Notes under the pieces: generated by a model | What the model was told of the DNA's origin: nothing | The model's database searches: none | The model's input: the letters and a program-made list of their open reading frames with translations, nothing else | Shown here: positions 37,562 to 50,665 of the stretch, piece by piece | Numbering within the stretch: position 1 is the stretch's first letter | How the letters are laid out: the number at the start of each line of letters is the position of its first letter | DNA from: Escherichia phage AV125 | Sequence record: OR352955.1 | Reading direction: 5' to 3' (one strand) | DNA: 64,000 nucleotides | Translations under genes and position numbers: made by a program

Positions 37562-37590
37562 AAAGGAGCCAAATGGCTCCTTTCTTTTAT
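37562..37590. terminator. Bidirectional terminator at the convergent junction
   Basis: 9-bp stem AAAGGAGCC / GGCTCCTTT with loop AAAT, flanked by A-rich sequence upstream and T-rich downstream; between the end of the plus-strand fiber gene and the end of the minus-strand HNH gene. Confidence 0.6.
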
Positions 37591-38018
37591 TCAGCGTTCA
37601 ACCCTTCACCATGTTCTTGATGCCAAGCCTCATGGTGTAGAGGGCACAGCCATAGAACATCTAACGGTTTATCATAATCACAATGATGAGCATGAACATC
37701 AACAGACCCACACACTTGGCAAGGTTGTTTTACTAACTTTCCATCTCGGAGTGCGTTACCAACTAAAACGTGAACACTACGCTTCTTGGGATTCTTTTCT
37801 TGCCAACGTTTTTTAGCCGCGTCCGCTTTATCCTTTCCTTTTCCTTTTACATACTTTTCTTTTGCTGCTTTACGATTAGGGTCTTGATCTCGTATACGGT
37901 CACGTTCTTTTAAGCAAGCTTTACAGGACGCCGTATAGCCATCTTTAGAAGCCTTCCTTACTTGGAACATGTTGAGAGGCTTTTCAGCCCCACAACACGA
38001 GCATAACTTACTGATCAA
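37587..38018 (-). CDS. HNH homing endonuclease (free-standing)
   Basis: C-terminal HNH motif HAHHCDYDKPLDVLWLCPLHHEAWH; N-terminal Cys cluster CSCCG...SCKAC. Confidence 0.6.
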   Translation of the reverse strand: MISKLCSCCGAEKPLNMFQVRKASKDGYTASCKACLKERDRIRDQDPNRKAAKEKYVKGKGKDKADAAKKRWQEKNPKKRSVHVLVGNALRDGKLVKQPCQVCGSVDVHAHHCDYDKPLDVLWLCPLHHEAWHQEHGEGLNAE

Positions 38019-38902
38019 AAAGGAATATCTTCGTCGAAGTCCATTGGAGGTTCTTCTTGATTACTTGGAGTTGGTTCTGGTTGTGGTTCAGGTTTCTTAA
38101 CTTCTTTCTTCTCTTCTTTCTTAGGCTGTTCTGCGGAACCACGAATGGCAGCAGCAACTTTATCAGACAGAGCCAGAACTTTACGAGCAGAATCAATCAG
38201 ATCTTCTACAGAGACAGTCTTGATGGTATGGTCTTTACAAGCATTGAGAATAGCGTGACCAACAGATGCCCCAAGATCATAATCATTAATATCAACGCCA
38301 CGAGATTCAGCAATTTCAGATTTCAGCGTGACAGTTGCAGATTGAACAACCCCAGCGATATCGAAAGCATCGCCTTTAACACCATTACGAATCAGTTCCA
38401 GTGCACCATTTACTGCGTGACCAGTTTCCAGACCTACAGTATCACGTTTTTTATAGGACTGCTTAGGAGCAGCATCGTTGGAACCTTTATTGCCAGAAGA
38501 TTTGTTAGACTTCTGAACACCATCGGTAGACAATACTGTAATACGAGATTTTTTAGTATTGTAGTAAGTTTTACCGCCTTTATTATCAACGCGATCAATA
38601 TCAATACTTACTTCTACACCTTTTTCAATAGTGATCCAATTATCACCTTCTTTGACTTGCAGGTTTTCATAACCTTCTTTCAGTTCAATGTCACCAAGAG
38701 AAATCCAAACACCTTTCTCATCTGGTTTAGCACCTTTCTCTTTCAGAACAAGAGAAGCTCGGTGAGTTGAAACAATCGTTTTTCCTTCCCAATGGAAGGT
38801 TTTAGGTTCAGCGAATTTATCCAGTTTAACGTAGTCTACGATACCAGTTGCATAAGTTACGGTTTTGCCTTTACGATCAGTTTCAGTATTAATTACGGAC
38901 AT
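38015..38902 (-). CDS. ssb: Single-stranded DNA-binding protein with E. coli SSB-like acidic C-terminal tip
   Basis: 295 aa; Pro/Glu/Lys-rich linker then terminal PMDFDEDIPF, closely resembling the bacterial SSB tip DFDDDIPF; located in the replication module. Confidence 0.5.
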   Translation of the reverse strand: MSVINTETDRKGKTVTYATGIVDYVKLDKFAEPKTFHWEGKTIVSTHRASLVLKEKGAKPDEKGVWISLGDIELKEGYENLQVKEGDNWITIEKGVEVSIDIDRVDNKGGKTYYNTKKSRITVLSTDGVQKSNKSSGNKGSNDAAPKQSYKKRDTVGLETGHAVNGALELIRNGVKGDAFDIAGVVQSATVTLKSEIAESRGVDINDYDLGASVGHAILNACKDHTIKTVSVEDLIDSARKVLALSDKVAAAIRGSAEQPKKEEKKEVKKPEPQPEPTPSNQEEPPMDFDEDIPF

Positions 38903-38918
38903 TATTATCTCCTCTACA

Positions 38919-39311
38919 TTACATTAATTTTGCACAGAAAGAGCGGAGTCTTTCCATATCATCTTGCTCTAACAGGTATTTACCTTTACCTATTCCAACC
39001 CCAATTTCACCATTAGGAAAATGAACTATTTGCACTGGGAAACCTCCGAGTTTAATTGTGGCAGCTTTGCCTTCTTCGTCTATAACGTTTCGGATTGTAT
39101 CTTGCAGTGAAATGAATTCTTTGTTTGTAACAGTGGTTTCAATTATTTCAGATGTTTCAACACGAGCAGTTAGCTTCTTGTTTCCACCTTGAATAACCAA
39201 AATTTGAAAATAAAAAGAGTTGTCAAGACCTACAACATTTTTCTCAACTAGTGTCAAACTGGTATAGTTTCCATAAACAGTTTCAACAGCTATCTTAGAA
39301 CGTTCAGTCAT
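38919..39311 (-). CDS. Hypothetical protein
   Basis: 130-aa ORF with consistent strand and spacing; no motif recognised. Confidence 0.3.
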   Translation of the reverse strand: MTERSKIAVETVYGNYTSLTLVEKNVVGLDNSFYFQILVIQGGNKKLTARVETSEIIETTVTNKEFISLQDTIRNVIDEEGKAATIKLGGFPVQIVHFPNGEIGVGIGKGKYLLEQDDMERLRSFCAKLM

Positions 39312-39356
39312 TGAATGCTATCCTATCATAAAATGTTTAATATTGTCAAGCTTTAA

Positions 39357-39953
39357 TTACCAAGGAATATCATCTTCTTCTTCCGATTTGGTATCTACTT
39401 GAGGTGGACGTGGAACCTTAACCTCTTTAACAAAGCGAAGATATGGGAAACGCGTAGCGATTTTAATAACATGTTTGGCATCTTCTCTAACATCTTTGTG
39501 CAAGAAGCAGATCCCTGTTTCCAAAGTTGTTTCAAAATCTTTAGAGTAATAACAATCCTTTCCATCAAATGCAGCCTGGCAGATGGACAGATCAAACTCA
39601 TTCAGAAAGGTTGTCATTACATTTGGGTCCATAATCATAAGGTTGCAAAGCTGACCATCACGTTCAAATTCAAAAACGTGTTTAAGACCAGTAACACCCT
39701 CGTAGTTATCAGAAGCCTCTTTGTTTCCTAGTTTACGAATATTAGTTCCCATCAAAGCAGATGCAATCAAGTCTTGTATTTGCTCTTCTGATCGATGTGC
39801 AGGAAGAGACGTGTAAAAATCCAGATCACGTCCGGCAATATCAAGAATACGCCAATCACGAACAGCACCGCCAGCCAAGACAGAATTAGGATCAGCGATC
39901 TTTAATACGGTAAGAATTTCTTTGGCAATATTGATTTGTTTTGATTTAGTCAT
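39357..39953 (-). CDS. Pol-beta superfamily nucleotidyltransferase (CCA-adding/poly(A) polymerase head-like) with SSB-like C-terminal tip
   Basis: Motif LAGGAVRDWRILDIAGRDLDF matches the GGAVRD...D.D head-domain signature of class II CCA-adding enzymes; C-terminus ...SEEEDDIPW mimics the SSB tip. Confidence 0.45.
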   Translation of the reverse strand: MTKSKQINIAKEILTVLKIADPNSVLAGGAVRDWRILDIAGRDLDFYTSLPAHRSEEQIQDLIASALMGTNIRKLGNKEASDNYEGVTGLKHVFEFERDGQLCNLMIMDPNVMTTFLNEFDLSICQAAFDGKDCYYSKDFETTLETGICFLHKDVREDAKHVIKIATRFPYLRFVKEVKVPRPPQVDTKSEEEDDIPW

Positions 39954-40582: not shown

Positions 40583-43500
40583 TCAATGACAGGATGCCCA
40601 GGAATTACCCACATCATATCCGGCAGTAAGCTGAACGTTAAGATTGTAAAATTCTCCAGCCTTAGTAACAGCTAAAGCAGCAAGTTCACCTGCCCGACTA
40701 TAGGCTGTAAACCATCCACCTTTGGGAGATTCATGAATGTTAGCCCAAATTTGCCCTGTCTCTTTTTCCTTATTATGCTTCCATTCTTCGACTTTAGCAA
40801 GACATTCTTTATCAATTTTCTTTTGTTCTTCAGGATCGTCTACTTTCTTCCAACCTAATGATTCAGGTGAAAACCATTTGAATTCTACAAGGTTACGAGA
40901 AACTTCAAGCTGGGCTTCATCGTGGTATGCAATCATTTGTTGCACGAAGTCTTTATTCTTCCAGTCATCTTTAAAGAAGTCAACACTTAGCCCTTCTTCT
41001 TCGATCATGTCGTCATAAATAACCATTGCACGTTTAGCACAGATAACCCCACCACTTTGGAACAGAGAGTTAAGAATCGCGTGAGCAGAACGAGTAGGAA
41101 CCTTACGACCGTCAATACCCAAAACATACTGTTTACCAGTCTTAACCCAGAAATCGTTTAAACGTTCTTTAAGACGCGCCAGTGGGAATGCAGCTTCCCA
41201 GAAAGCATCGAACACCAGTTGCCCTGTGTATTTATCGCTACCAATTGTTTTAGCAACCTTGTCTGCTTGTGCACCATAAGTGATCCCGTATTTAACAGAT
41301 TTCGCCGGACTACGTTCAAACTTACGCCCAATAGTATCTGTAATACGTTTTGCCATCATGGTATGAACATCGTTAGGCTTCTCTAACAAGAGAGCGTTAC
41401 AGTATTCATGAGGCTCCGGTTCGTAGCGCCAACAGTTTCCTGTGATGGTAATGCAGTCTTTCTGACGCATGACCCACGTACCAAGTTCTGTTTGTGGACA
41501 CCAAACATCCTCTACACCCCACTCTTCAATAGTCAAACTTTGAACAGGAATGTGAGAGCGGTTAGTCAATGTTGCCACTTTTACTTTCTGCTCTTTTGTA
41601 TTGAAAGCTACAGAGATATTGCCTCCATGCACCAGGTACGAGGCAGTTAAAGCTGCTTCAAAAAGTTCACCTGGGTTCTGCGCCCAACGCCAAACAGGTT
41701 TTTGTTTATGTTCATGCCAGTAACCATCTGCAATCAAGAAACCTTCCAAGAAAGCTACACGCTCGGCATGAGACATATTAACTACACGCTCTACCCACGG
41801 AACATCCCATTTACCTTGTTGAACAGAAGTTAAACTATTTACCTGATCTTGTTCCATGTTAAATGGAGCATTACAAATAATATTATCTCCTGTGCAAAGA
41901 TCGGCAGTTGTTCTGACTTTAGGCACATAAGTATTCCCTTTACTACGGGTATTAACATACCAACGGTGATCTGCTGTTGCACGGTAAGTGTGTGATTTCC
42001 CTTTAATCTCAAACGTCTTACTATTTTTATAGAAGACCTTACCTTTTACTTTAGTCCATTCTTTCATACCTGTTTCAGCATTGTACCCTAAAATCTCATC
42101 CCCTTCCTTCAGGTCGTGATATCCTACCCAACCTTTACGAGTCAAAGCTTGAGCATCCATCGGCACACAGTAATGCGACTCAATCTTTGCTTCCAAAGAG
42201 TCGAAGTCATAACCGATCTGGAAGTATTTAGGAACCTCTACACCAAACAAGTTACGCATCTCCCATCCAAACAAAGATGTGACACGAGGAATATTAGCTA
42301 CAGACCTATGCTTCATACGAGAGGTTGCAGCATCACATGTAGCTGCTGGGGTAGGAATACGACCATCCGCCCTTACTGCGGCTAAGAAACCTTTATCGTA
42401 TTCTTGATCTTCTTCGTCTTCTTCCCAATCGGCACCACCACCTAAAATAGAGTTCCTACGGTGTTTATACGTTAAGTATTCTACAATCTGTGTAGCATAA
42501 GGAAATTTCTCACCCAAAGCTTGCAGGTTAGGACAAATTTCTTTTTCCTGACCTTTGGTAAAACATGGGTTAGTCAATACTTTAAGACCGCGACCTTTAC
42601 CTTTTGCTATACGCTCTTGAATCTTCCTTTCCAAGGTTTCCGGTGTGCACTCCAGATGATCACAACGATCCTGACAAAAATTAGAAGATAGAGTTTGCTC
42701 AACGTAAGCTCGAATACCTTTCTGAAGTTCTTCCTCGCTCTTTTTAATCTTGGTGCCAGATTTAAGAGTCAAGTCTTTATCTTTATATTCAGACGGTACC
42801 CAACCTAACCCTACAAGCCAGTTTTTAATATGGGTTGTATCGTTCAATGTTGCAGGGATATTAGGATCACACAAAGGCTCATCTGCTGCAACTGGCAGTT
42901 TCCACTCTTTCCCCAACATAACTAACCACCAATCTCCATCCCTCTCTTCCAAATGACCATCATGTTTCTTAGCAAAATTGATCATATGGTTAGTTGGCTC
43001 TAAGTTCTTTTTAATTTGCAACTTAGGTGGAATAAAAGCCTTAAGATAGCCTTTTGTTGCTGGTTTAGGTGGCAAAATAGGCTCAACGAGTAAACGAAGA
43101 CGCTCCATTTCTGCATCCAAAAAAGCAAGGTTCTCTTCTGCTTGCTTCATGTTAAAAGCAAATCCACGGTGTTCCTGGCGTGTAATAATGTCTGCTACAC
43201 GTTGTTCAAGTTCAAATGGACCTTCCCATTTATCATAATCACCCCACTCTTCCATAAGGTAATTATATACGCTTGTATTAGCTTTGTTGTCATAGATACA
43301 GTAATAAAGCATATCCGCAGCAAAAGTCTTAAATCGATCTTCTTCTGGAATCTCTTTACGGAAATCTATTTTTACATCACCACCTGCTTTTCGAGAAAGT
43401 GCTGCCAAGCTATGTCCTGATTTGCCCTCAATCTTTCGATCTGGGTTTAACACTTTACTCAAAATCAAGGAGTCAATAAGTTTTACCTTATTTTTGCCCC

Positions 43501-43915
43501 ACGTATTATATTTAACACTGTAATCTAATCCATAAAACAGTTTTGTAGCCAACCAGTCGTAGTTGATACCGTTGTGAGCCACAGCCATTTCAACCAGATA
43601 TTCAGGCTTGTCTTCAAAATAACCTTCATGATTAATAAAGTCTGGGAAATCTTTTAGTTGAAAATGCGTGTAATCTTGCGCCACATACTCTTTAAGAACA
43701 TATGTGTATTTACCATCTGACTCTTCATAAGGACGCCCATCAAAGATGTATTTAGGGCCATCGTGGAAAGCTACTATTTCTCCTGTTTCATGGTTCTCTA
43801 AGACAATACAGTGCATTTGAAATGTGTCTTTGAGACGATAAGGACTAGCTAAATAATCAATAGTGTCATTATTCAACAATCCGTTTGCTTCAATATCCCA
43901 TGTAAACTTACTCAC
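40583..43915 (-). CDS. Family A DNA polymerase with 3'-5' exonuclease domain, interrupted by an intein-like insertion
   Basis: Exo I motif DIEANGL; polymerase motif A DFDSLEAKI, motif B RSPAKSVKYGITYG, motif C YHDEAQLEV; about 245 extra residues between motifs A and B; GTG start overlapping the upstream stop. Confidence 0.75.
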   Translation of the reverse strand: MSKFTWDIEANGLLNNDTIDYLASPYRLKDTFQMHCIVLENHETGEIVAFHDGPKYIFDGRPYEESDGKYTYVLKEYVAQDYTHFQLKDFPDFINHEGYFEDKPEYLVEMAVAHNGINYDWLATKLFYGLDYSVKYNTWGKNKVKLIDSLILSKVLNPDRKIEGKSGHSLAALSRKAGGDVKIDFRKEIPEEDRFKTFAADMLYYCIYDNKANTSVYNYLMEEWGDYDKWEGPFELEQRVADIITRQEHRGFAFNMKQAEENLAFLDAEMERLRLLVEPILPPKPATKGYLKAFIPPKLQIKKNLEPTNHMINFAKKHDGHLEERDGDWWLVMLGKEWKLPVAADEPLCDPNIPATLNDTTHIKNWLVGLGWVPSEYKDKDLTLKSGTKIKKSEEELQKGIRAYVEQTLSSNFCQDRCDHLECTPETLERKIQERIAKGKGRGLKVLTNPCFTKGQEKEICPNLQALGEKFPYATQIVEYLTYKHRRNSILGGGADWEEDEEDQEYDKGFLAAVRADGRIPTPAATCDAATSRMKHRSVANIPRVTSLFGWEMRNLFGVEVPKYFQIGYDFDSLEAKIESHYCVPMDAQALTRKGWVGYHDLKEGDEILGYNAETGMKEWTKVKGKVFYKNSKTFEIKGKSHTYRATADHRWYVNTRSKGNTYVPKVRTTADLCTGDNIICNAPFNMEQDQVNSLTSVQQGKWDVPWVERVVNMSHAERVAFLEGFLIADGYWHEHKQKPVWRWAQNPGELFEAALTASYLVHGGNISVAFNTKEQKVKVATLTNRSHIPVQSLTIEEWGVEDVWCPQTELGTWVMRQKDCITITGNCWRYEPEPHEYCNALLLEKPNDVHTMMAKRITDTIGRKFERSPAKSVKYGITYGAQADKVAKTIGSDKYTGQLVFDAFWEAAFPLARLKERLNDFWVKTGKQYVLGIDGRKVPTRSAHAILNSLFQSGGVICAKRAMVIYDDMIEEEGLSVDFFKDDWKNKDFVQQMIAYHDEAQLEVSRNLVEFKWFSPESLGWKKVDDPEEQKKIDKECLAKVEEWKHNKEKETGQIWANIHESPKGGWFTAYSRAGELAALAVTKAGEFYNLNVQLTAGYDVGNSWASCH
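41435..42169 (-). other. Intein-like insertion (Hint domain with a single LAGLIDADG-like motif) within the DNA polymerase
   Basis: Begins with Cys583 right after motif A (ESHY|CVPMDAQ); TxxH block (TADH); LAGLIDADG-like AFLEGFLIADGYW (nt 41723-41752); ends ...ITGN followed by Cys828 as +1 nucleophile. Other family A polymerases have about 30 residues here. Confidence 0.5.
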
Positions 43916-45229: not shown

Positions 45230-45245
45230 AAGGGCCGAAGCCCTT
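45230..45245 (-). terminator. Terminator hairpin at 3' end of primase-helicase gene
   Basis: Stem AAGGGC / GCCCTT with loop CGAA, followed on the minus strand by TTATTAAAAAT; overlaps the stop codon. Confidence 0.4.
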
Positions 45246-47022
45246 AATAATTGCTATCCGTAGGCAAATTAGCAGGATTGTTGAAATACTGCTCTTTGTC
45301 ATGCAGAGTTGCAGTTCTAATGTCATAGTAAAACTGCCCTGCCGGACCAGTTTCCGAGAACTCACGGTTTTTTAGGATAAAGCAATGAGTCGTATTGCGT
45401 TCTACAGGGTCTTCAGCGGCTTTATCTCGTTCCAAAGCCAAGGTAATACCAGCACCTTTAGCCAAGAAACTACTACCCATTGCATCGTCCTCTGTTAAGT
45501 GTTCATTGCCACCATTAGCCGATTTCTTAACGTGTGAGATGACGATAATAGTTATAGCATACTCTTTCATGATGCGCTTCAACCATGTTGCTAACTCTTC
45601 CTGGGCTTGAACATCCATACCAGAAAGCAAATCAGAATAAGGGTCGATAACAAGAATTGTTACTCCAAAATAGATGATCATCTCCAAAACTTTTTCTTTG
45701 ATAGACTCCACATCTGCTCCACGATCATCACACACATAAAAACGTGGTGATCCATCTTCTCTTTCGTAAAAATCTAGGATTTTTTCTTTATTCTCTTCCA
45801 AGATTTGAAATTTCTCTTCCGGTGTTTTCCTGTGTAGAGGAATATGCAGGAACGAGGACAACAGGTTACGAGAATATTTCTTATAAGTTGCTTCCAAGGA
45901 CAGAATACCTAGGGTATGTTCTGGGTGCGCAACAATAATATGTTTGGTGATCTCGTTCACCATCAAAGTTTTACCGATACTGGTCTTTGCCAGGATGACT
46001 GTAATCTCTTCCTCTACTAAACCACCACCCAGCATATTTGCAGCAACACGCATAAAAGGAGGCAAGGTAATCATCTTGGATTCCAAGCATTCTAATGCAG
46101 CTTCATACAAGACATTAGAAGCATAAACACCTGCTGGGGTGTATAGACGAGCACTCCAAAAAGCTTTTACGAAATCTTTTGCACGACCTTCTTCCAGATA
46201 CTGATTGGCATCCTTAAGATCCATCTGCATACGGTAGACTTTGTTACGAGGCAGCACCTTAACAATATTTTCAAATGCCTCATTACCTGCTTTGTCATTA
46301 TCCATGCAAACAATAATCTTCTTAAATTTTTCAAAGAAAGGGTATTGTGCCTGAACTTGTTTATACATACTGGTTTCACCAGTTGTGCCACTAACTACTG
46401 CTGGAAGTTCATATTTGTTGTCCAAGTTTTCAGACAGCATTTGATAAGCTGCCAGAGCATCGTGTTCACCACCTGTAATTACCACAGTATGAGAACGGTC
46501 TGCAAAACGAATTTGTCCAAAAAGATCTACATCTTTACCTACTTGACCAATAGGTTTACTGAAATCTTTAGGATGAATACGACGCTTAAAACCAACCAAT
46601 TCTTTACCGATGGTAGTTGGATATAAACAACTTTCTACTACCATCTGATCCCCTTCCTGACGGTATTCATAACGAACACCATAGAAAGATGAAACTTTTT
46701 CTTTAATGCCTCGATAACCACGTGGGTTGGTTGATGTTTCTTGAACAATTTTACGATGAATCTGTTTATTAAATTCCGAACCCACAATCTCCTCCTCTTC
46801 TTCTAAAACTTCACCATTTTCTCGTAACCATTCTACGCTAGGAATAGTGTATTCACACGCAAAGCACTTAGCACCTTTATGCTCTCCATTAGAATCTAAT
46901 CCATAAACCATCAGGTTATTACGAGAGCGATCCTTGCCATTTTTCATGCAGCGCGGACAACCTGTATGTCCTTCCTTGCTAAGATCAACATCAAATCCAT
47001 ATTTAGTTATAATGTGCGACAC
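45244..47022 (-). CDS. Bifunctional DNA primase-helicase (T7 gp4-like)
   Basis: N-terminal zinc finger CPRC...CFAC; TOPRIM-like VVITGGEHDALAAY and VCMDNDKAGNEA; helicase Walker A KTSIGKT and Walker B ILVIDPYSD. Confidence 0.7.
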   Translation of the reverse strand: MSHIITKYGFDVDLSKEGHTGCPRCMKNGKDRSRNNLMVYGLDSNGEHKGAKCFACEYTIPSVEWLRENGEVLEEEEEIVGSEFNKQIHRKIVQETSTNPRGYRGIKEKVSSFYGVRYEYRQEGDQMVVESCLYPTTIGKELVGFKRRIHPKDFSKPIGQVGKDVDLFGQIRFADRSHTVVITGGEHDALAAYQMLSENLDNKYELPAVVSGTTGETSMYKQVQAQYPFFEKFKKIIVCMDNDKAGNEAFENIVKVLPRNKVYRMQMDLKDANQYLEEGRAKDFVKAFWSARLYTPAGVYASNVLYEAALECLESKMITLPPFMRVAANMLGGGLVEEEITVILAKTSIGKTLMVNEITKHIIVAHPEHTLGILSLEATYKKYSRNLLSSFLHIPLHRKTPEEKFQILEENKEKILDFYEREDGSPRFYVCDDRGADVESIKEKVLEMIIYFGVTILVIDPYSDLLSGMDVQAQEELATWLKRIMKEYAITIIVISHVKKSANGGNEHLTEDDAMGSSFLAKGAGITLALERDKAAEDPVERNTTHCFILKNREFSETGPAGQFYYDIRTATLHDKEQYFNNPANLPTDSNY

Positions 47023-47034
47023 TTTGTTCTCCTG

Positions 47035-47313
47035 TTAAAATGGTTCGTTAGTCTCCATCATATATTCTGCTTCTAGTTCTTCCATGTGCTTTCTAAATTG
47101 GAAAGCAATTTCTGCTACAGTTACATTTAAATCTTTTTCAAAAACTTCTGTAGATCCTTCATAAAAACGAATACCGTCAATTAAAAGCCCTCCGTGGTAA
47201 TCCCAATCGCTTTCACGAGAAAGTGGATTAGGTTCTTCATAATAGTAATCCACCTCCACGACCAAGGCTTTCCCGTTACGAGTGGTGTATTCAAAATCAA
47301 AAGTGTTAATCAT
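47035..47313 (-). CDS. Hypothetical protein
   Basis: 92-aa ORF, coupled to the upstream gene. Confidence 0.3.
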   Translation of the reverse strand: MINTFDFEYTTRNGKALVVEVDYYYEEPNPLSRESDWDYHGGLLIDGIRFYEGSTEVFEKDLNVTVAEIAFQFRKHMEELEAEYMMETNEPF

Positions 47314-48257
47314 TATAGCTCCTCAAATAAAAGTCTACGACGCTCATTCAACACATCAATGTGATAATGAGTCCTGACATACTTAGCTAATGCTAATCCT
47401 TTCTCCATGCAAACATCGGGAGCACTTGATAAGTATTCCGTAATATCTTTCCACTCGGAAGGTGTTTCAGCAAAGAATAACAAATCTTTAAACTCTTGTG
47501 TATGATAATTCTCACGAGGAGAGCAGATTAAAGGTAAACCCTTAGCACCTGCCTCAAGAATTTTAAGATTGCTTTTTGCATTATTAAACACGTTATCGAT
47601 CAATGGTGCAAGACTGATTTGATGACCATCGTAAGATTCCATGTAGTTGGCATATGGTCTTACACCTTCATAAACACAAGTTGGTGCTACATTTTCCCTG
47701 ATTAAAGACCATTCACGACTACTTAAAACTTCAGAATCCCTACGAAAACCACATATTGTAAGATCTTTACCAAAATCGGGCAAGATAGCCAAATCTTGTT
47801 TATGTGTTTCACTTCCAGCCCAGACTAATGGAGTTTTGGAGTAGCGATCACGGGTCAACACAAATTGACCTTCATCGTAAGGAAGTCCATTAGGGATTAT
47901 GTGCACATTATCATTGTATTGTGAAAGTTCAACTTGCAAGGCAGGTGTCGTAGTTGTAACAAGATCACTGTGCTCTAAAAACCATTTTAAATGTTCACGA
48001 ATACCTGATTCAAAAATACCTTCTAACATGTGTCCTTTTGGAATAACTAAAGAGTCATCCAAATCCATAACCATTTTAAAGCCCAGGTTTTTAAGGGCTA
48101 AAAAGCCCTCTTTACCTTTTGTTGGCACTCCGTTAAAAACGAAAACGTTGTGTTTAGGTTGTGAAGAGAACTGCCTTGAGTAAGGCAGCACTACCCTATG
48201 GAAATCGCAGACACTATAATTGATTCCGTTACGATTGTCAAGAATTATTTGTCCCAT
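47313..48257 (-). CDS. Glycosyltransferase (GT-B fold-like), paralog 1
   Basis: C-terminal motif KSNLKILEAGAKGLPLICS typical of GT-B donor-binding domains; paralogous to the adjacent gene. Confidence 0.45.
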   Translation of the reverse strand: MGQIILDNRNGINYSVCDFHRVVLPYSRQFSSQPKHNVFVFNGVPTKGKEGFLALKNLGFKMVMDLDDSLVIPKGHMLEGIFESGIREHLKWFLEHSDLVTTTTPALQVELSQYNDNVHIIPNGLPYDEGQFVLTRDRYSKTPLVWAGSETHKQDLAILPDFGKDLTICGFRRDSEVLSSREWSLIRENVAPTCVYEGVRPYANYMESYDGHQISLAPLIDNVFNNAKSNLKILEAGAKGLPLICSPRENYHTQEFKDLLFFAETPSEWKDITEYLSSAPDVCMEKGLALAKYVRTHYHIDVLNERRRLLFEEL

Positions 48258-48264
48258 ACTTCAC

Positions 48265-49251
48265 CTACAAACTTTCAATAACCTGGCGTCGCAATTCGTT
48301 TGCATCTGCCAGATTATAATGTGTTCGAACATGTTCCGCTAAGAACAAGCCGCGATCTTCCCGATAGTTCGGATTTCGAAGAAGCTTAACAATTTCGTAA
48401 TGCCATTCTGCTTTATTCTCTGCATAAGCAACAGCGCGAGCATCTACAGGGTTAAAATAAGGTAATACCTTAGAACAAACAATCGGAATACCTTTTGCCC
48501 CAGCTTCAAGGATTTTGAGATTACTTTTACAATTATTAAAATCATTATCTACCAAAGGAGCTATAGCAATAGCATGACTTTCGTAAACACTCATGTAATT
48601 ATCTAAATCTTTTACAGCAGCTTTATATTTGGCATTTGGTAAATTTCTACGGATCTTAATCCACTCTTGCCCTGTGATACTCTGCGATGCTTCATATCCT
48701 GCAATAGTAAGAAGTTCATCATCGAAAGTATTAGAGACTAGTCGTAAATCGGGTTCGTGACTAGCACCGCCAGCCCATACAACAGGGGTACCGGATGAAC
48801 GATCATTTGACAAAGTGAATTGTCCGCTATCAAAAGGAAGTGCATTTCGGATCACAACAACATTCCTATTTAAGTGACGGATCTTATATGCCAAATATTC
48901 CGTAGTCACAATGACCACATCGGCAAGCTTAACCATAGCTACAATAGCATGAGTGTTTGACTCATATAAACTTGCTAAATAATGTTCTGGATTAAGTTGG
49001 TAGAAATCATCTAAATCTACAACAATCTTAACACCTTGACGTTTCAGGGACAGAACATATTCTGCCCCTTTAGAATGAATACGGTTAAACACGACAACAT
49101 CTTTCTTAGGCTGAAAATTATTGTTGTTAAATGGTATAACAATACGATGATAATCACAACCACTGTGAGGTTTTGCATCAATTTTCAGTTTAGTCCATTT
49201 TTTATTTGACATGTGCCAGTGCCTCCTCATAAGAAATTCGGATTTTCCCAT
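48265..49251 (-). CDS. Glycosyltransferase (GT-B fold-like), paralog 2
   Basis: Collinear similarity to the 47313 gene (DYHRIVIPF vs DFHRVVLPY; KSNLKILEAGAKGIPIVCS). Confidence 0.45.
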   Translation of the reverse strand: MGKSEFLMRRHWHMSNKKWTKLKIDAKPHSGCDYHRIVIPFNNNNFQPKKDVVVFNRIHSKGAEYVLSLKRQGVKIVVDLDDFYQLNPEHYLASLYESNTHAIVAMVKLADVVIVTTEYLAYKIRHLNRNVVVIRNALPFDSGQFTLSNDRSSGTPVVWAGGASHEPDLRLVSNTFDDELLTIAGYEASQSITGQEWIKIRRNLPNAKYKAAVKDLDNYMSVYESHAIAIAPLVDNDFNNCKSNLKILEAGAKGIPIVCSKVLPYFNPVDARAVAYAENKAEWHYEIVKLLRNPNYREDRGLFLAEHVRTHYNLADANELRRQVIESL

Positions 49252-49885
49252 TTTTAATATCTTCTAAAGACGCTTTATATTCTTCCCAGTTAATGCCAAT
49301 AGCAGCTTCTTTCTCTTCTTTTGTCAGATTAGCAAAAGGCATAGGATTGTTTCCAAAAACATCGTCTGGGTGGATATAAGCCATGATACGAAGTGGACAA
49401 GGTATTGCCTGAATGCCCTGATTCAAACCAGCAGCTTTCAAACGGTGTACCCATTCAGCATCTTCAAAACCATAGCCGTGAGTGTAAGGGCGGAAATAAC
49501 CCATCTTCTCAACAACGGCACGAGAATACATTGCAAATTGACACATTGCAAGTTCCCAGAGAATAACTTCTCCTTTACTCCCAACAACTTTATCTTTGAA
49601 ATACTCCGGCATACCAAAGAAATCCCATCCTCCAGAGACAGCTTGATCTACAAAATATGTTTCCCATCCCTCCATGATTGGGTAGCAATCGTCGTCAAAA
49701 ATAAACCAATAATCATAACCTTCTTCATAAAACTGGTGCATAAGTTCATTCCTGGCGTAAGCTACACCTTTACGATCTGGATCGTTGAATATTCGAAAAT
49801 CTGCATGTGGATCTGTTACAAGATAGTCTTTAAGTGGACGGACACCTACAGTGATAACACCCACTCCGATTTTAATATTTTCCAT
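49202..49885 (-). CDS. Glycosyltransferase (GT-A fold-like, DxD)
   Basis: FIFDDDCYP (DxD) and YGFEDAEW motifs; the 3' end overlaps the next gene by about 50 nt. Confidence 0.45.
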   Translation of the reverse strand: MENIKIGVGVITVGVRPLKDYLVTDPHADFRIFNDPDRKGVAYARNELMHQFYEEGYDYWFIFDDDCYPIMEGWETYFVDQAVSGGWDFFGMPEYFKDKVVGSKGEVILWELAMCQFAMYSRAVVEKMGYFRPYTHGYGFEDAEWVHRLKAAGLNQGIQAIPCPLRIMAYIHPDDVFGNNPMPFANLTKEEKEAAIGINWEEYKASLEDIKNGKIRISYEEALAHVK

Positions 49886-49893
49886 TTTCTCTC

Positions 49894-50457
49894 CTAGATA
49901 GTTTTACTGTGATCGTGACAGTGTAATAAATGATGTATAGACCGTTGAGGATTTGTTTGACCTAATCTGTAAATGTGAAACAGATACATTCCCCGCATCA
50001 ATCCTAACCTTTTTCCTTTTTCATGTAAAGTGCGAGAGAAAATTAGGTCGAATTGGATAGATTTTTCTTCGAAAGGAATTTCATTCCACAATGATTTTCT
50101 AAAAAGCAAAAAGAAACCTGCCAGAGGTGTTCCGAAAGGAACTTCTTCAACACTCACTTTATGATATTCTCTTGCAATCTTAGCATATTCTATATGGTTT
50201 AGAATATTTGGATCATCGTTAATTTGGTTAGAGAAAAGCTGATAACCACTACCTAACCTGTTACAAGTTGCACCTATTACATCAAAAGGCGGGTTTGACA
50301 TAATAAGCTCTTCAAGCATAGATGGTTGATCAGGCAGGAGGAACATTGTATCGGTATCTCTTAAGCACACCCAACTATCATCTGGAAGAACGGCAATAGC
50401 TTCATTGATAGCCTTGCCGATATTTCCTGTCAGATAGGGAGTAATATAATAAATCAT
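49894..50457 (-). CDS. Putative glycosyltransferase (GT-A-like, DxD motif CLRDTDTMF)
   Basis: N-terminal YITPY..GNIGKAINEAI then DTD motif; fourth member of a glycosyltransferase cluster. Confidence 0.3.
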   Translation of the reverse strand: MIYYITPYLTGNIGKAINEAIAVLPDDSWVCLRDTDTMFLLPDQPSMLEELIMSNPPFDVIGATCNRLGSGYQLFSNQINDDPNILNHIEYAKIAREYHKVSVEEVPFGTPLAGFFLLFRKSLWNEIPFEEKSIQFDLIFSRTLHEKGKRLGLMRGMYLFHIYRLGQTNPQRSIHHLLHCHDHSKTI

Positions 50458-50473
50458 TCTCCCCTCCGTTATA

Positions 50474-50665
50474 TTAACTGTCAGCTACAATCCCACGTTT
50501 AATCATTTCTTGTTGGATTTGGATGACACGATCTCGTGCTTCCATATATTCTTTAAAAGATTCTTGGAGATGGTCACGAGCTACATCCCGTAGTTTAATC
50601 AGCTTGTCGTTTGTCACTTCTTGAAGAGAGATCTCGCCAGTTTCATTGGTCCCAAGCGTTTTCAT
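50474..50665 (-). CDS. Hypothetical small protein
   Basis: 63-aa helical, charged ORF. Confidence 0.3.
   Translation of the reverse strand: MKTLGTNETGEISLQEVTNDKLIKLRDVARDHLQESFKEYMEARDRVIQIQQEMIKRGIVADS

Follow-up and report, generated by a model that had tools for sequence, protein, structure and literature searches.

We describe here a small nucleotidyltransferase (NTase) encoded in a 64,000-nucleotide stretch of DNA from Escherichia phage AV125 (sequence record OR352955.1), referred to below as the window. Over the 3.5 kb tested, the window shares 97% identity with the Escherichia phage nepoznato and its Phapecoctavirus relatives, and it belongs to this group of phAPEC8-like E. coli myophages within the Stephanstirmvirinae. 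The NTase is a 198-amino-acid (aa) protein that carries at its C-terminus a tip of the type found on single-stranded DNA (ssDNA)-binding proteins (SSBs). We tentatively interpret it, with a probability of roughly 45%, as a catalytically competent minimal enzyme of the Pol-beta superfamily that would serve a T7-type replication module and would be tethered by its tip to the docking sites of SSB tips. The direct results behind this interpretation are the fold, the conserved catalytic residues, a disordered but conserved tip, linkage to the replication module and homology to the anti-Gabija protein Gad2.

The initial annotation of this DNA had pointed out a 198-aa open reading frame (ORF) with a GGAVRD…D.D motif and a …EEEDDIPW end, which was confirmed by translation of the minus-strand interval listed in Table 1. 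The ORF has an ATG start, preceded by GGAG about 9 nt upstream, and a TAA stop; residues 26-34 read L26-AGGAVRDW-34, D43-L-D45 follows, and the C-terminal sequence is …TKSEEEDDIPW with the stop directly after it. The AlphaFold2 (AF2) model obtained from an alignment of 112 sequences (pLDDT 90), which superseded a poor model from 11 sequences (pLDDT 66), comprises the head and a partial neck of class II CCA-adding enzymes and poly(A) polymerases (PAPs), followed by a disordered tail. The fold stops at about residue 176, and residues 176-198 are without secondary structure, with pLDDT dropping from 65 to 50. Among 112-146 diverse family members, G28, G29, D43 and D45 show no variation, and more than 90% of the members retain R32, D33, W34, Y84 and K164. 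When a deep profile of the family was compared with the PDB, only motif A of CCA-adding enzyme and PAP chains could be aligned. By structure comparison the matched PDB chains have 372-425 aa, of which 146-158 residues are aligned.

The Pfam head domain PolyA_pol (PF01743) matched the NTase with 15.2 bits (E 0.028), below its gathering score of 23, and at E ≤ 10 it matched 67 of the 112 relatives, the best E being 3.9e-5. Because this score is sub-threshold, the assignment as a nucleotidyltransferase, already proposed by the initial annotation, is upheld by the predicted fold and the profile results and not by Pfam. A search of NCBIfam returned only noise (TIGR02692, 12 bits), no match was found in PADLOC, and Cas12f matches from a shallow-profile search of the PDB were discarded as spurious. 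In BFVD the structural neighbours are mostly unnamed small NTases from a wide range of phages, many of them T7-like. The family is large, with more than 1000 clusters at 50% identity; N-terminal extensions of four relatives (P0078, P0097, P0120 and P0131) contain no Pfam domain and give no hint of a fusion partner. Database records already annotate the gene as a nucleotidyltransferase, many of them as "putative tRNA nucleotidyl transferase / poly(A) polymerase" (GenBank).

The C-terminus of the NTase combines an acidic run, an [IVL]-P-aromatic end and a free carboxylate, as does the C-terminal tip of SSB (SSB-Ct), and in the model a disordered linker, which is Pro-rich, lies between the fold and the tip. 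When all stop-to-stop ORFs of the window with 40 or more aa were scanned, an acidic run with a C-terminal IP[FW] was found only in the NTase and in an SSB-like protein, encoded by the second gene downstream, whose C-terminus is …MDFDEDIPF. The likeness of the NTase tail to this neighbour and to bacterial SSB, noticed in the initial annotation, is therefore borne out, the end of the SSB-like protein (…EPPMDFDEDIPF) being equal to that of E. coli SSB (…EPPMDFDDDIPF) at 11 of the last 12 residues.

The tail was found to be conserved across Phapecoctavirus and to recur in several unrelated sublineages, but phi92 gp158 and most of the ~330 relatives compared lack it. In Phapecoctavirus and in the phiWec186/190 lineage (58-96% identity) D-[DE]-I-P-W is kept, with one variant, DSFPW, next to a linker that differs in both sequence and length. 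The NTase of Citrobacter phage Tr1 (36% identity) ends in KPKDIPW. The C-terminus of phi92 gp158 is NNEEFKI, without a tip, and further relatives end in EFMDEI, HWTDEI, PDVFNF or PWDEEF. In total, [ILVMF]P[FWY] ends are present in 22 of 329 family members. By a nearest-neighbour analysis of the core domain, tip-bearing NTases form at least six sublineages whose closest relatives are tipless, so that repeated gain or loss of the tip must have taken place; the carriers are Phapecoctavirus, Tr1, P0016, P0120, P0159, P0109 and L041. Ends of the form [DE].?[ILVMF]P[FWY] were counted on 23 of the 2354 genes of 84 related phage loci; six of these are NTases of the family and most others are SSB-like. 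Since such ends are rare and nearly all occur on SSB-like proteins or NTases, a resemblance of this kind does not commonly arise by chance.

Eight tip-bearing NTase genes were compared at the codon level (window 39360..39374; L002-L006, L086, L087); they represent at least five lineages with core identities of 30-60%, and every one encodes the tip by the same codons, GAT ATT CCT TGG. SSB tips, unlike those of the NTases, show ordinary synonymous codon variation, and given local codon usage the chance of such identity under independence is ~0.004. A DNA-level element was considered as its cause and rejected, as the downstream sequences differ between lineages and no common element was found. 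As a separate observation, the phage-like contigs with the tip-bearing NTase P0109 (…EKPIPF) contain an IS605 OrfB/TnpB-like gene (Cas12f1-like_TNB; L089 4678-5862, L090 4918-6102).

The NTase gene lies in a replication module. On the minus strand of the window, four glycosyltransferase genes are followed by those for a primase-helicase, a 143-aa ORF, a Dam-like methylase and a family A DNA polymerase (Pol), and then by three small ORFs, the NTase gene, a 130-aa ORF, the SSB-like gene and an HNH endonuclease gene. The family context was analysed by clustering the neighbouring genes in 80 viral-contig loci and in GenBank relatives. Two neighbours recur most often, a T7 gp4-like primase-helicase in 54 loci and a family A DNA polymerase in 46; a primase-helicase or a DNA polymerase is encoded within 5 kb of the NTase gene in 63 of 82 loci, and both are in 45. 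The observed gene orders include primase-helicase–NTase–Pol, NTase–primase-helicase–Pol and Pol–NTase–flap endonuclease (FEN), whereas the Stephanstirmvirinae have Pol–…–NTase–130 aa–SSB-like. Because the order varies and the adjacency is kept, we favour a functional tie to the T7-type replisome over simple inherited synteny. The DNA polymerase of the window could be a docking partner of the NTase. At one locus (L086) the tip-bearing relative P0120 follows genes for MazG, a deoxynucleoside monophosphate (dNMP) kinase, thymidine kinase and a NUDIX protein.

The same tip is found on other phage proteins. Viral contigs were scanned for DNA encoding DDIPW and a stop codon, which gave at least 120 matches (L092-L211). 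Among the matches listed, 114 of 120 coincide with the in-frame end of an ORF that has 60 or more aa, and at least 26 protein clusters end in DDIPW. The carriers include an OB-fold SSB (L189), other SSB types, a superfamily 2 (SF2) DNA helicase (L122), a dNMP kinase (L124) and an AAA ATPase (L197), as well as proteins without known function of ~90 aa (at least 42 copies) and ~197 aa (at least 17 copies). Judging from these sequences, the SSB-type tip appears to behave as a portable C-terminal tag on phage proteins of DNA and nucleotide metabolism, the NTase being one carrier. The replication link of the NTase family gains new support both from the T7-type modules and from the occurrence of this kind of tip on other phage enzymes, helicases and a dNMP kinase among them.

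A comparison of the NTase family with Gad2 homologues by hhalign gave a probability of 97.4% (E 1.2e-11) over 122 columns, spanning residues 12-154 of the NTase and 17-141 of Gad2 (397 aa). The Gad2 profile was composed of six homologues taken from Supplementary Table 10 of bioRxiv 10.1101/2023.05.01.538930. Two motifs are common to the NTase family and Gad2, namely AGG…[ND]D[VL]D[IVF]Y and FD[FL][ST][IV]C..AFD…DF. About half of the listed relatives bear the precomputed Pfam label PF26128 "Gad2"; our own Pfam searches of the NTase and its relatives did not report PF26128. According to the profile comparison, the closest characterised relative of the NTase is the NTase domain of Gad2, and the homology is remote. 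Gad2 is the second, genetically verified anti-Gabija protein of Bacillus phage SPbetaL7 (400 aa); it has an AF2-predicted NTase domain, an unknown mechanism, a toxic effect on overexpression, and short homologues of 214-278 aa among the relatives given by its authors (bioRxiv 10.1101/2023.05.01.538930). A literature search retrieved no paper on the mechanism of Gad2, and no long Gad2 homologue was found in the window. In the rV5-like phage 4MG (L091, KF550303.1 58640-60064), a 474-aa Gad2 homologue is encoded just 3' of an array of 22 tRNA genes and 5' of the terminase gene, a context that differs from that of the short NTase.

From these results we infer docking of the NTase, its partner, its substrate and its biological role as follows. 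The folded core (~176 aa, acidic) lacks a nucleic-acid-binding domain of its own and precedes the disordered linker and the acidic tip. The tip would insert into a pocket of the type that accepts the SSB C-terminus; this pocket would belong to an SSB-interacting protein of the host or to a replisome protein of the phage. The parallel would be T7, in which gp2.5 and gp4 have a common acidic, aromatic-ended tail that docks on the polymerase. Such docking would concentrate the NTase at SSB-coated ssDNA and replication forks, where a 3' end, a nucleotide or a protein may receive a nucleotidyl group from it. Its role would most likely be to protect or service replicating phage DNA, as a Gad2-like counter-defence, rather than to mature tRNA; a role directed at DNA or nucleotides is likelier in view of the Gad2 homology and of the missing ribose-discriminating motif discussed below. 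The reading of the initial annotation, recruitment to SSB-binding sites or competition with SSB, has partial support: the predicted fold and the conservation of the tail bear it out, and recruitment appears plausible. In an extended form of this proposal, which we regard as improbable, DDIP[FW] would be a portable address label that directs NTases, dNMP kinases, SF2 helicases, AAA ATPases and small proteins to a hub of SSB-Ct pockets. The NTase would then be a Gad2-type counter-defence enzyme sent to forks or to host nuclease-helicase machines, and by nucleotidylating a DNA end, a protein or a nucleotide it would blind defences that sense replication intermediates.

Several observations weigh against the tethered replication enzyme. 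The synteny with replication genes could be due in part to the shared ancestry of a large phage clade and not to function. To judge from the sequences, the tip is dispensable for the core function of the family, most members of which, phi92 gp158 included, lack it although DIPF is retained on their SSB-like proteins. A strict covariation of NTase and SSB tails was ruled out: at L007 and L011-L015 the SSB-like proteins end in DIPF or DVPF and the NTases have other ends, and the covariation is also broken in Tr1, in which the NTase has a tip and DIPF is internal in the SSB-like protein. The terminal residue of the NTase tip is W, whereas that of the canonical SSB-Ct is F; W-ended tips are also present on canonical OB-fold SSBs in viral contigs. 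As to Gad2, the PF26128 hits were marked "weak" or "faint" in three members checked, and the remote homology covers ~120 residues, leaving the ~250-aa C-terminal part of Gad2 (~400 aa) without a counterpart in the NTase. Finally, Gad2 is encoded in an anti-defence locus and the NTase in a replication module.

Alternatively, the NTase could be a PAP or an enzyme that repairs tRNA 3' ends or adds CCA; it would act on phage or host tRNAs or in RNA tailing, and its acidic tail would be incidental. Its motif A head (GGxVRD … DxD) and its fold are indeed those of class II enzymes, GenBank records carry this annotation, and truncated class II enzymes retain some catalytic activity; the main argument is the position of the long Gad2 homologue of 4MG next to the tRNA gene array. 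The anatomy of the protein makes tRNA repair, one of the substrate options left open by the initial annotation, quite unlikely. Class II enzymes have ~370-470 aa, whereas the 198-aa NTase lacks the tRNA- or RNA-binding body and tail domains and its neck is partial. Judged by sequence pattern and the model and not by a residue-level structural alignment, motif B (RRDFTINA) is replaced by N-E-F-D-L-S-I-C in the NTase and F-x-x-S-I-C in the family, so that both arginines are missing; neither motif D (EDxxR) nor the ED of "REDAKH" in the NTase shows conservation across the family. In contrast to the basic, RNA-binding CCA-adding enzymes and PAPs, the folded core is acidic (pI 5.6); the Pfam score is sub-threshold, the gene context is DNA replication and not RNA repair, and a search of the 64-kb window found no tRNA gene. 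As far as can be told from the sequence and the model, the NTase is not a CCA-adding enzyme, given the missing domains, the lack of conservation in motifs B and D and the acidic core, and the label "tRNA nucleotidyltransferase / poly(A) polymerase" on genes of this family is probably wrong.

The loss of the ribose-discriminating RRD motif and the acidic core without a nucleic-acid-binding domain would also suit a nucleotide-pool enzyme, which would use free (d)NTPs or (d)NMPs as substrates or yield a nucleotide product and be held by its tip in a dNTP-supply complex at the fork. A model for such a complex is the association of T4 dNTP-synthesis enzymes with gp32. The nucleotide-metabolism genes preceding the tip-bearing homologue at L086 and the DDIPW tip of a dNMP kinase are in agreement with this possibility, and the control of Gabija by nucleotide levels, as stated in a preprint (bioRxiv 10.1101/2023.05.02.539174), would tie such an activity to a Gad2-like role. 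We nevertheless consider it unlikely, given that the closest structural relatives are polynucleotide 3'-end transferases, that the nucleotide-metabolism context was seen at one locus only and that no product or substrate can be predicted. The close resemblance of the tip to the host SSB-Ct allows for a decoy as well, by which the NTase would occupy and block SSB-Ct pockets, be it on repair proteins, nucleases or helicases of the host or on a defence system, with catalysis being secondary or serving to nucleotidylate the bound host protein. SSB-Ct affinities are in the micromolar range, and a single tail on a presumably monomeric NTase would compete poorly with tetrameric SSB; moreover, the catalytic residues are strictly conserved in family members with and without a tip, and the exact host-like tip is already present on the phage SSB-like protein. 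This makes the decoy rather improbable, despite the anti-defence function of the Gad2 relatives, the toxicity of SPbetaL7 Gad2 and the report that BASEL phage Bas52 has a related SSB-like protein, tipped by FDDDIPF, which disturbs ssDNA metabolism linked to ExoI/SbcB and triggers the DRT10 reverse-transcriptase defence (10.64898/2026.04.29.721553). The tail might, finally, be a functionless, lineage-specific neutral extension that came to resemble SSB-Ct by chance or by local sequence exchange. Its absence from most family members, phi92 included, fits this view, and the identical tip codons in very divergent NTases could reflect a cause other than selection on the protein. It appears very unlikely, however, in light of the retention of the tip beside a diverging linker (58%-96% identity), its recurrence in unrelated sublineages, the rarity of such ends outside SSBs and the NTase family, and the fact that DDIPW, among the matches listed, is overwhelmingly a real ORF end on replication proteins.

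The SSB-like protein owes its name to its tail, to the annotation in some GenBank records and to a match in PHROG; in our searches its N-terminal domain did not match any known SSB profile. The N-terminal part has homologues in rV5-like phages, and the alignment with gp2.5-like SSBs is limited to the 9-residue tip. In phi92 gp156 (L001 5026-5973) and its Tr1 counterpart (L002 5064-6035), the SSB-like protein runs past DIPF by a conserved 15-aa extension, APIGLQYGRNFLHCF, and the internal DIPF would be without a free C-terminal carboxylate. The 130-aa protein encoded between the NTase and the SSB-like protein is a possible partner of the NTase. The sigma-70-like element that follows the NTase stop codon is conserved in Phapecoctavirus and phiWec186, and an analogous TTGACA is present in Tr1. 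Because of this element, the sequence suggests that a transcription unit ends with the NTase gene and that a further one begins with the genes for the 130-aa and SSB-like proteins. Most close relatives (e.g., ESCO5) lack the HNH gene, their alignments covering just 88% of the query, and this gene is probably a mobile homing endonuclease inserted right after the SSB tip.

Further observations concern the upstream part of the replication module. The insertion in the DNA polymerase has intein-like boundaries (…IESHY|C583…N827|C828WRYEP…; Cys1 … Asn-Cys+1) and a LAGLIDADG-like "FLIADGYW" within it; a Pfam search reported no intein domain at E ≤ 0.01. The 92-aa ORF next to the primase-helicase gene had no match in Pfam and, by its C-terminal sequence, may be another tail-bearing accessory protein of the replisome.

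Table 1. Coordinates of the NTase gene, its elements and neighbouring features in the window
Feature	Coordinates	Strand	Basis or remarks
NTase gene	39357..39953	-	198-aa predicted minimal nucleotidyltransferase; class II-like head and partial neck; remotely homologous to the NTase domain of Gad2
Catalytic motif A, G28-G29-A-V-R32-D33-W34 … D43-L-D45	39819..39872	-	Family conservation and PDB alignment
Flexible linker, residues 177-190, VKVPRPPQVDTKSE region	39384..39425	-	Sequence and length vary among relatives; without secondary structure
SSB-type C-terminal tip EEEDDIPW, residues 191-198	39360..39383	-	C-terminal sequence, window ORF scan, alignment
Sigma-70-like element TTGACA…TAGGAT (intergenic)	39312..39356	-	Between NTase stop and 130-aa gene
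130-aa protein (phrog_16560)	38919..39311	-	Unknown function; always between NTase and SSB-like gene in Stephanstirmvirinae; cluster c3, 14 loci
SSB-like protein, 295 aa, ends …EPPMDFDEDIPF	38015..38902	-	Tail, some GenBank annotations, PHROG match
HNH endonuclease gene (phrog_2340)	37587..38018	-	Overlaps the SSB-like stop codon; present in nepoznato
Family A (T7-like) DNA polymerase	40583..43915	-	Pfam DNA_pol_A, PHROG DNA polymerase; upstream of NTase in the same module
Polymerase insertion	41435..42169	-	In-frame, 245 aa, relative to the 865-aa polymerase of phiWec186
T7 gp4-like primase-helicase	45244..47022	-	ORF; annotation of 97%-identical nepoznato; commonest neighbour cluster of the NTase family
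92-aa ORF	47035..47313	-	Directly 5' of primase-helicase; acidic C-terminal stretch, aromatic end (…ELEAEYMMETNEPF)
Four consecutive glycosyltransferase genes	~47313..50500	-	Directly 5' of the replication module; nepoznato annotation

In the literature searched, we found no earlier description of an SSB-type tip or SSB tail on a phage NTase, of the membership of this NTase in a replication-linked, Gad2-related family, of the wider use of the tag, or of truncated phage CCA enzymes in connection with this family. If the tip docks the NTase, it would provide an entry point to a large uncharacterised family of small phage NTases; Gad2, which overcomes one of the most frequent defences of bacteria, is so far their sole studied relative. 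A tethered single-domain NTase of 198 aa from an easily grown E. coli phage would then be convenient for finding the substrate. The SSB tip would likewise become a transferable recruitment peptide for phage enzymes of several folds, extending the principle of the shared tail of T7 gp2.5 and gp4.

Among known systems, the NTase and Gad2 are alike in being phage-borne and in their homologous N-terminal NTase domains, and they differ in the SSB-type tip, which is absent from Gad2. A standalone protein consisting of a CCA head domain is known from a bacterium, Streptococcus pneumoniae NP_344798.1 (PDB 2la3, 191 aa); in the profile search against the PDB, no sequence match between it and the NTase family could be detected. 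In T7, gp4 and gp2.5 have a common acidic, Phe-ended tail that docks on the polymerase. The same arrangement is seen at locus L081, where the primase-helicase ends in …ADDRVPF and the gp2.5-like SSB in …DEDVPF, so that the helicase and the SSB share a tip. SSB-Ct (…MDFDDDIPF) and the T7 tails resemble the C-terminus of the NTase in the disordered linker, the acidic run and the C-terminal [IV]-P-aromatic end, whereas the carrier of the tip is in our case an enzyme with an NTase fold instead of an ssDNA-binding protein or a helicase, and the terminal residue is Trp.
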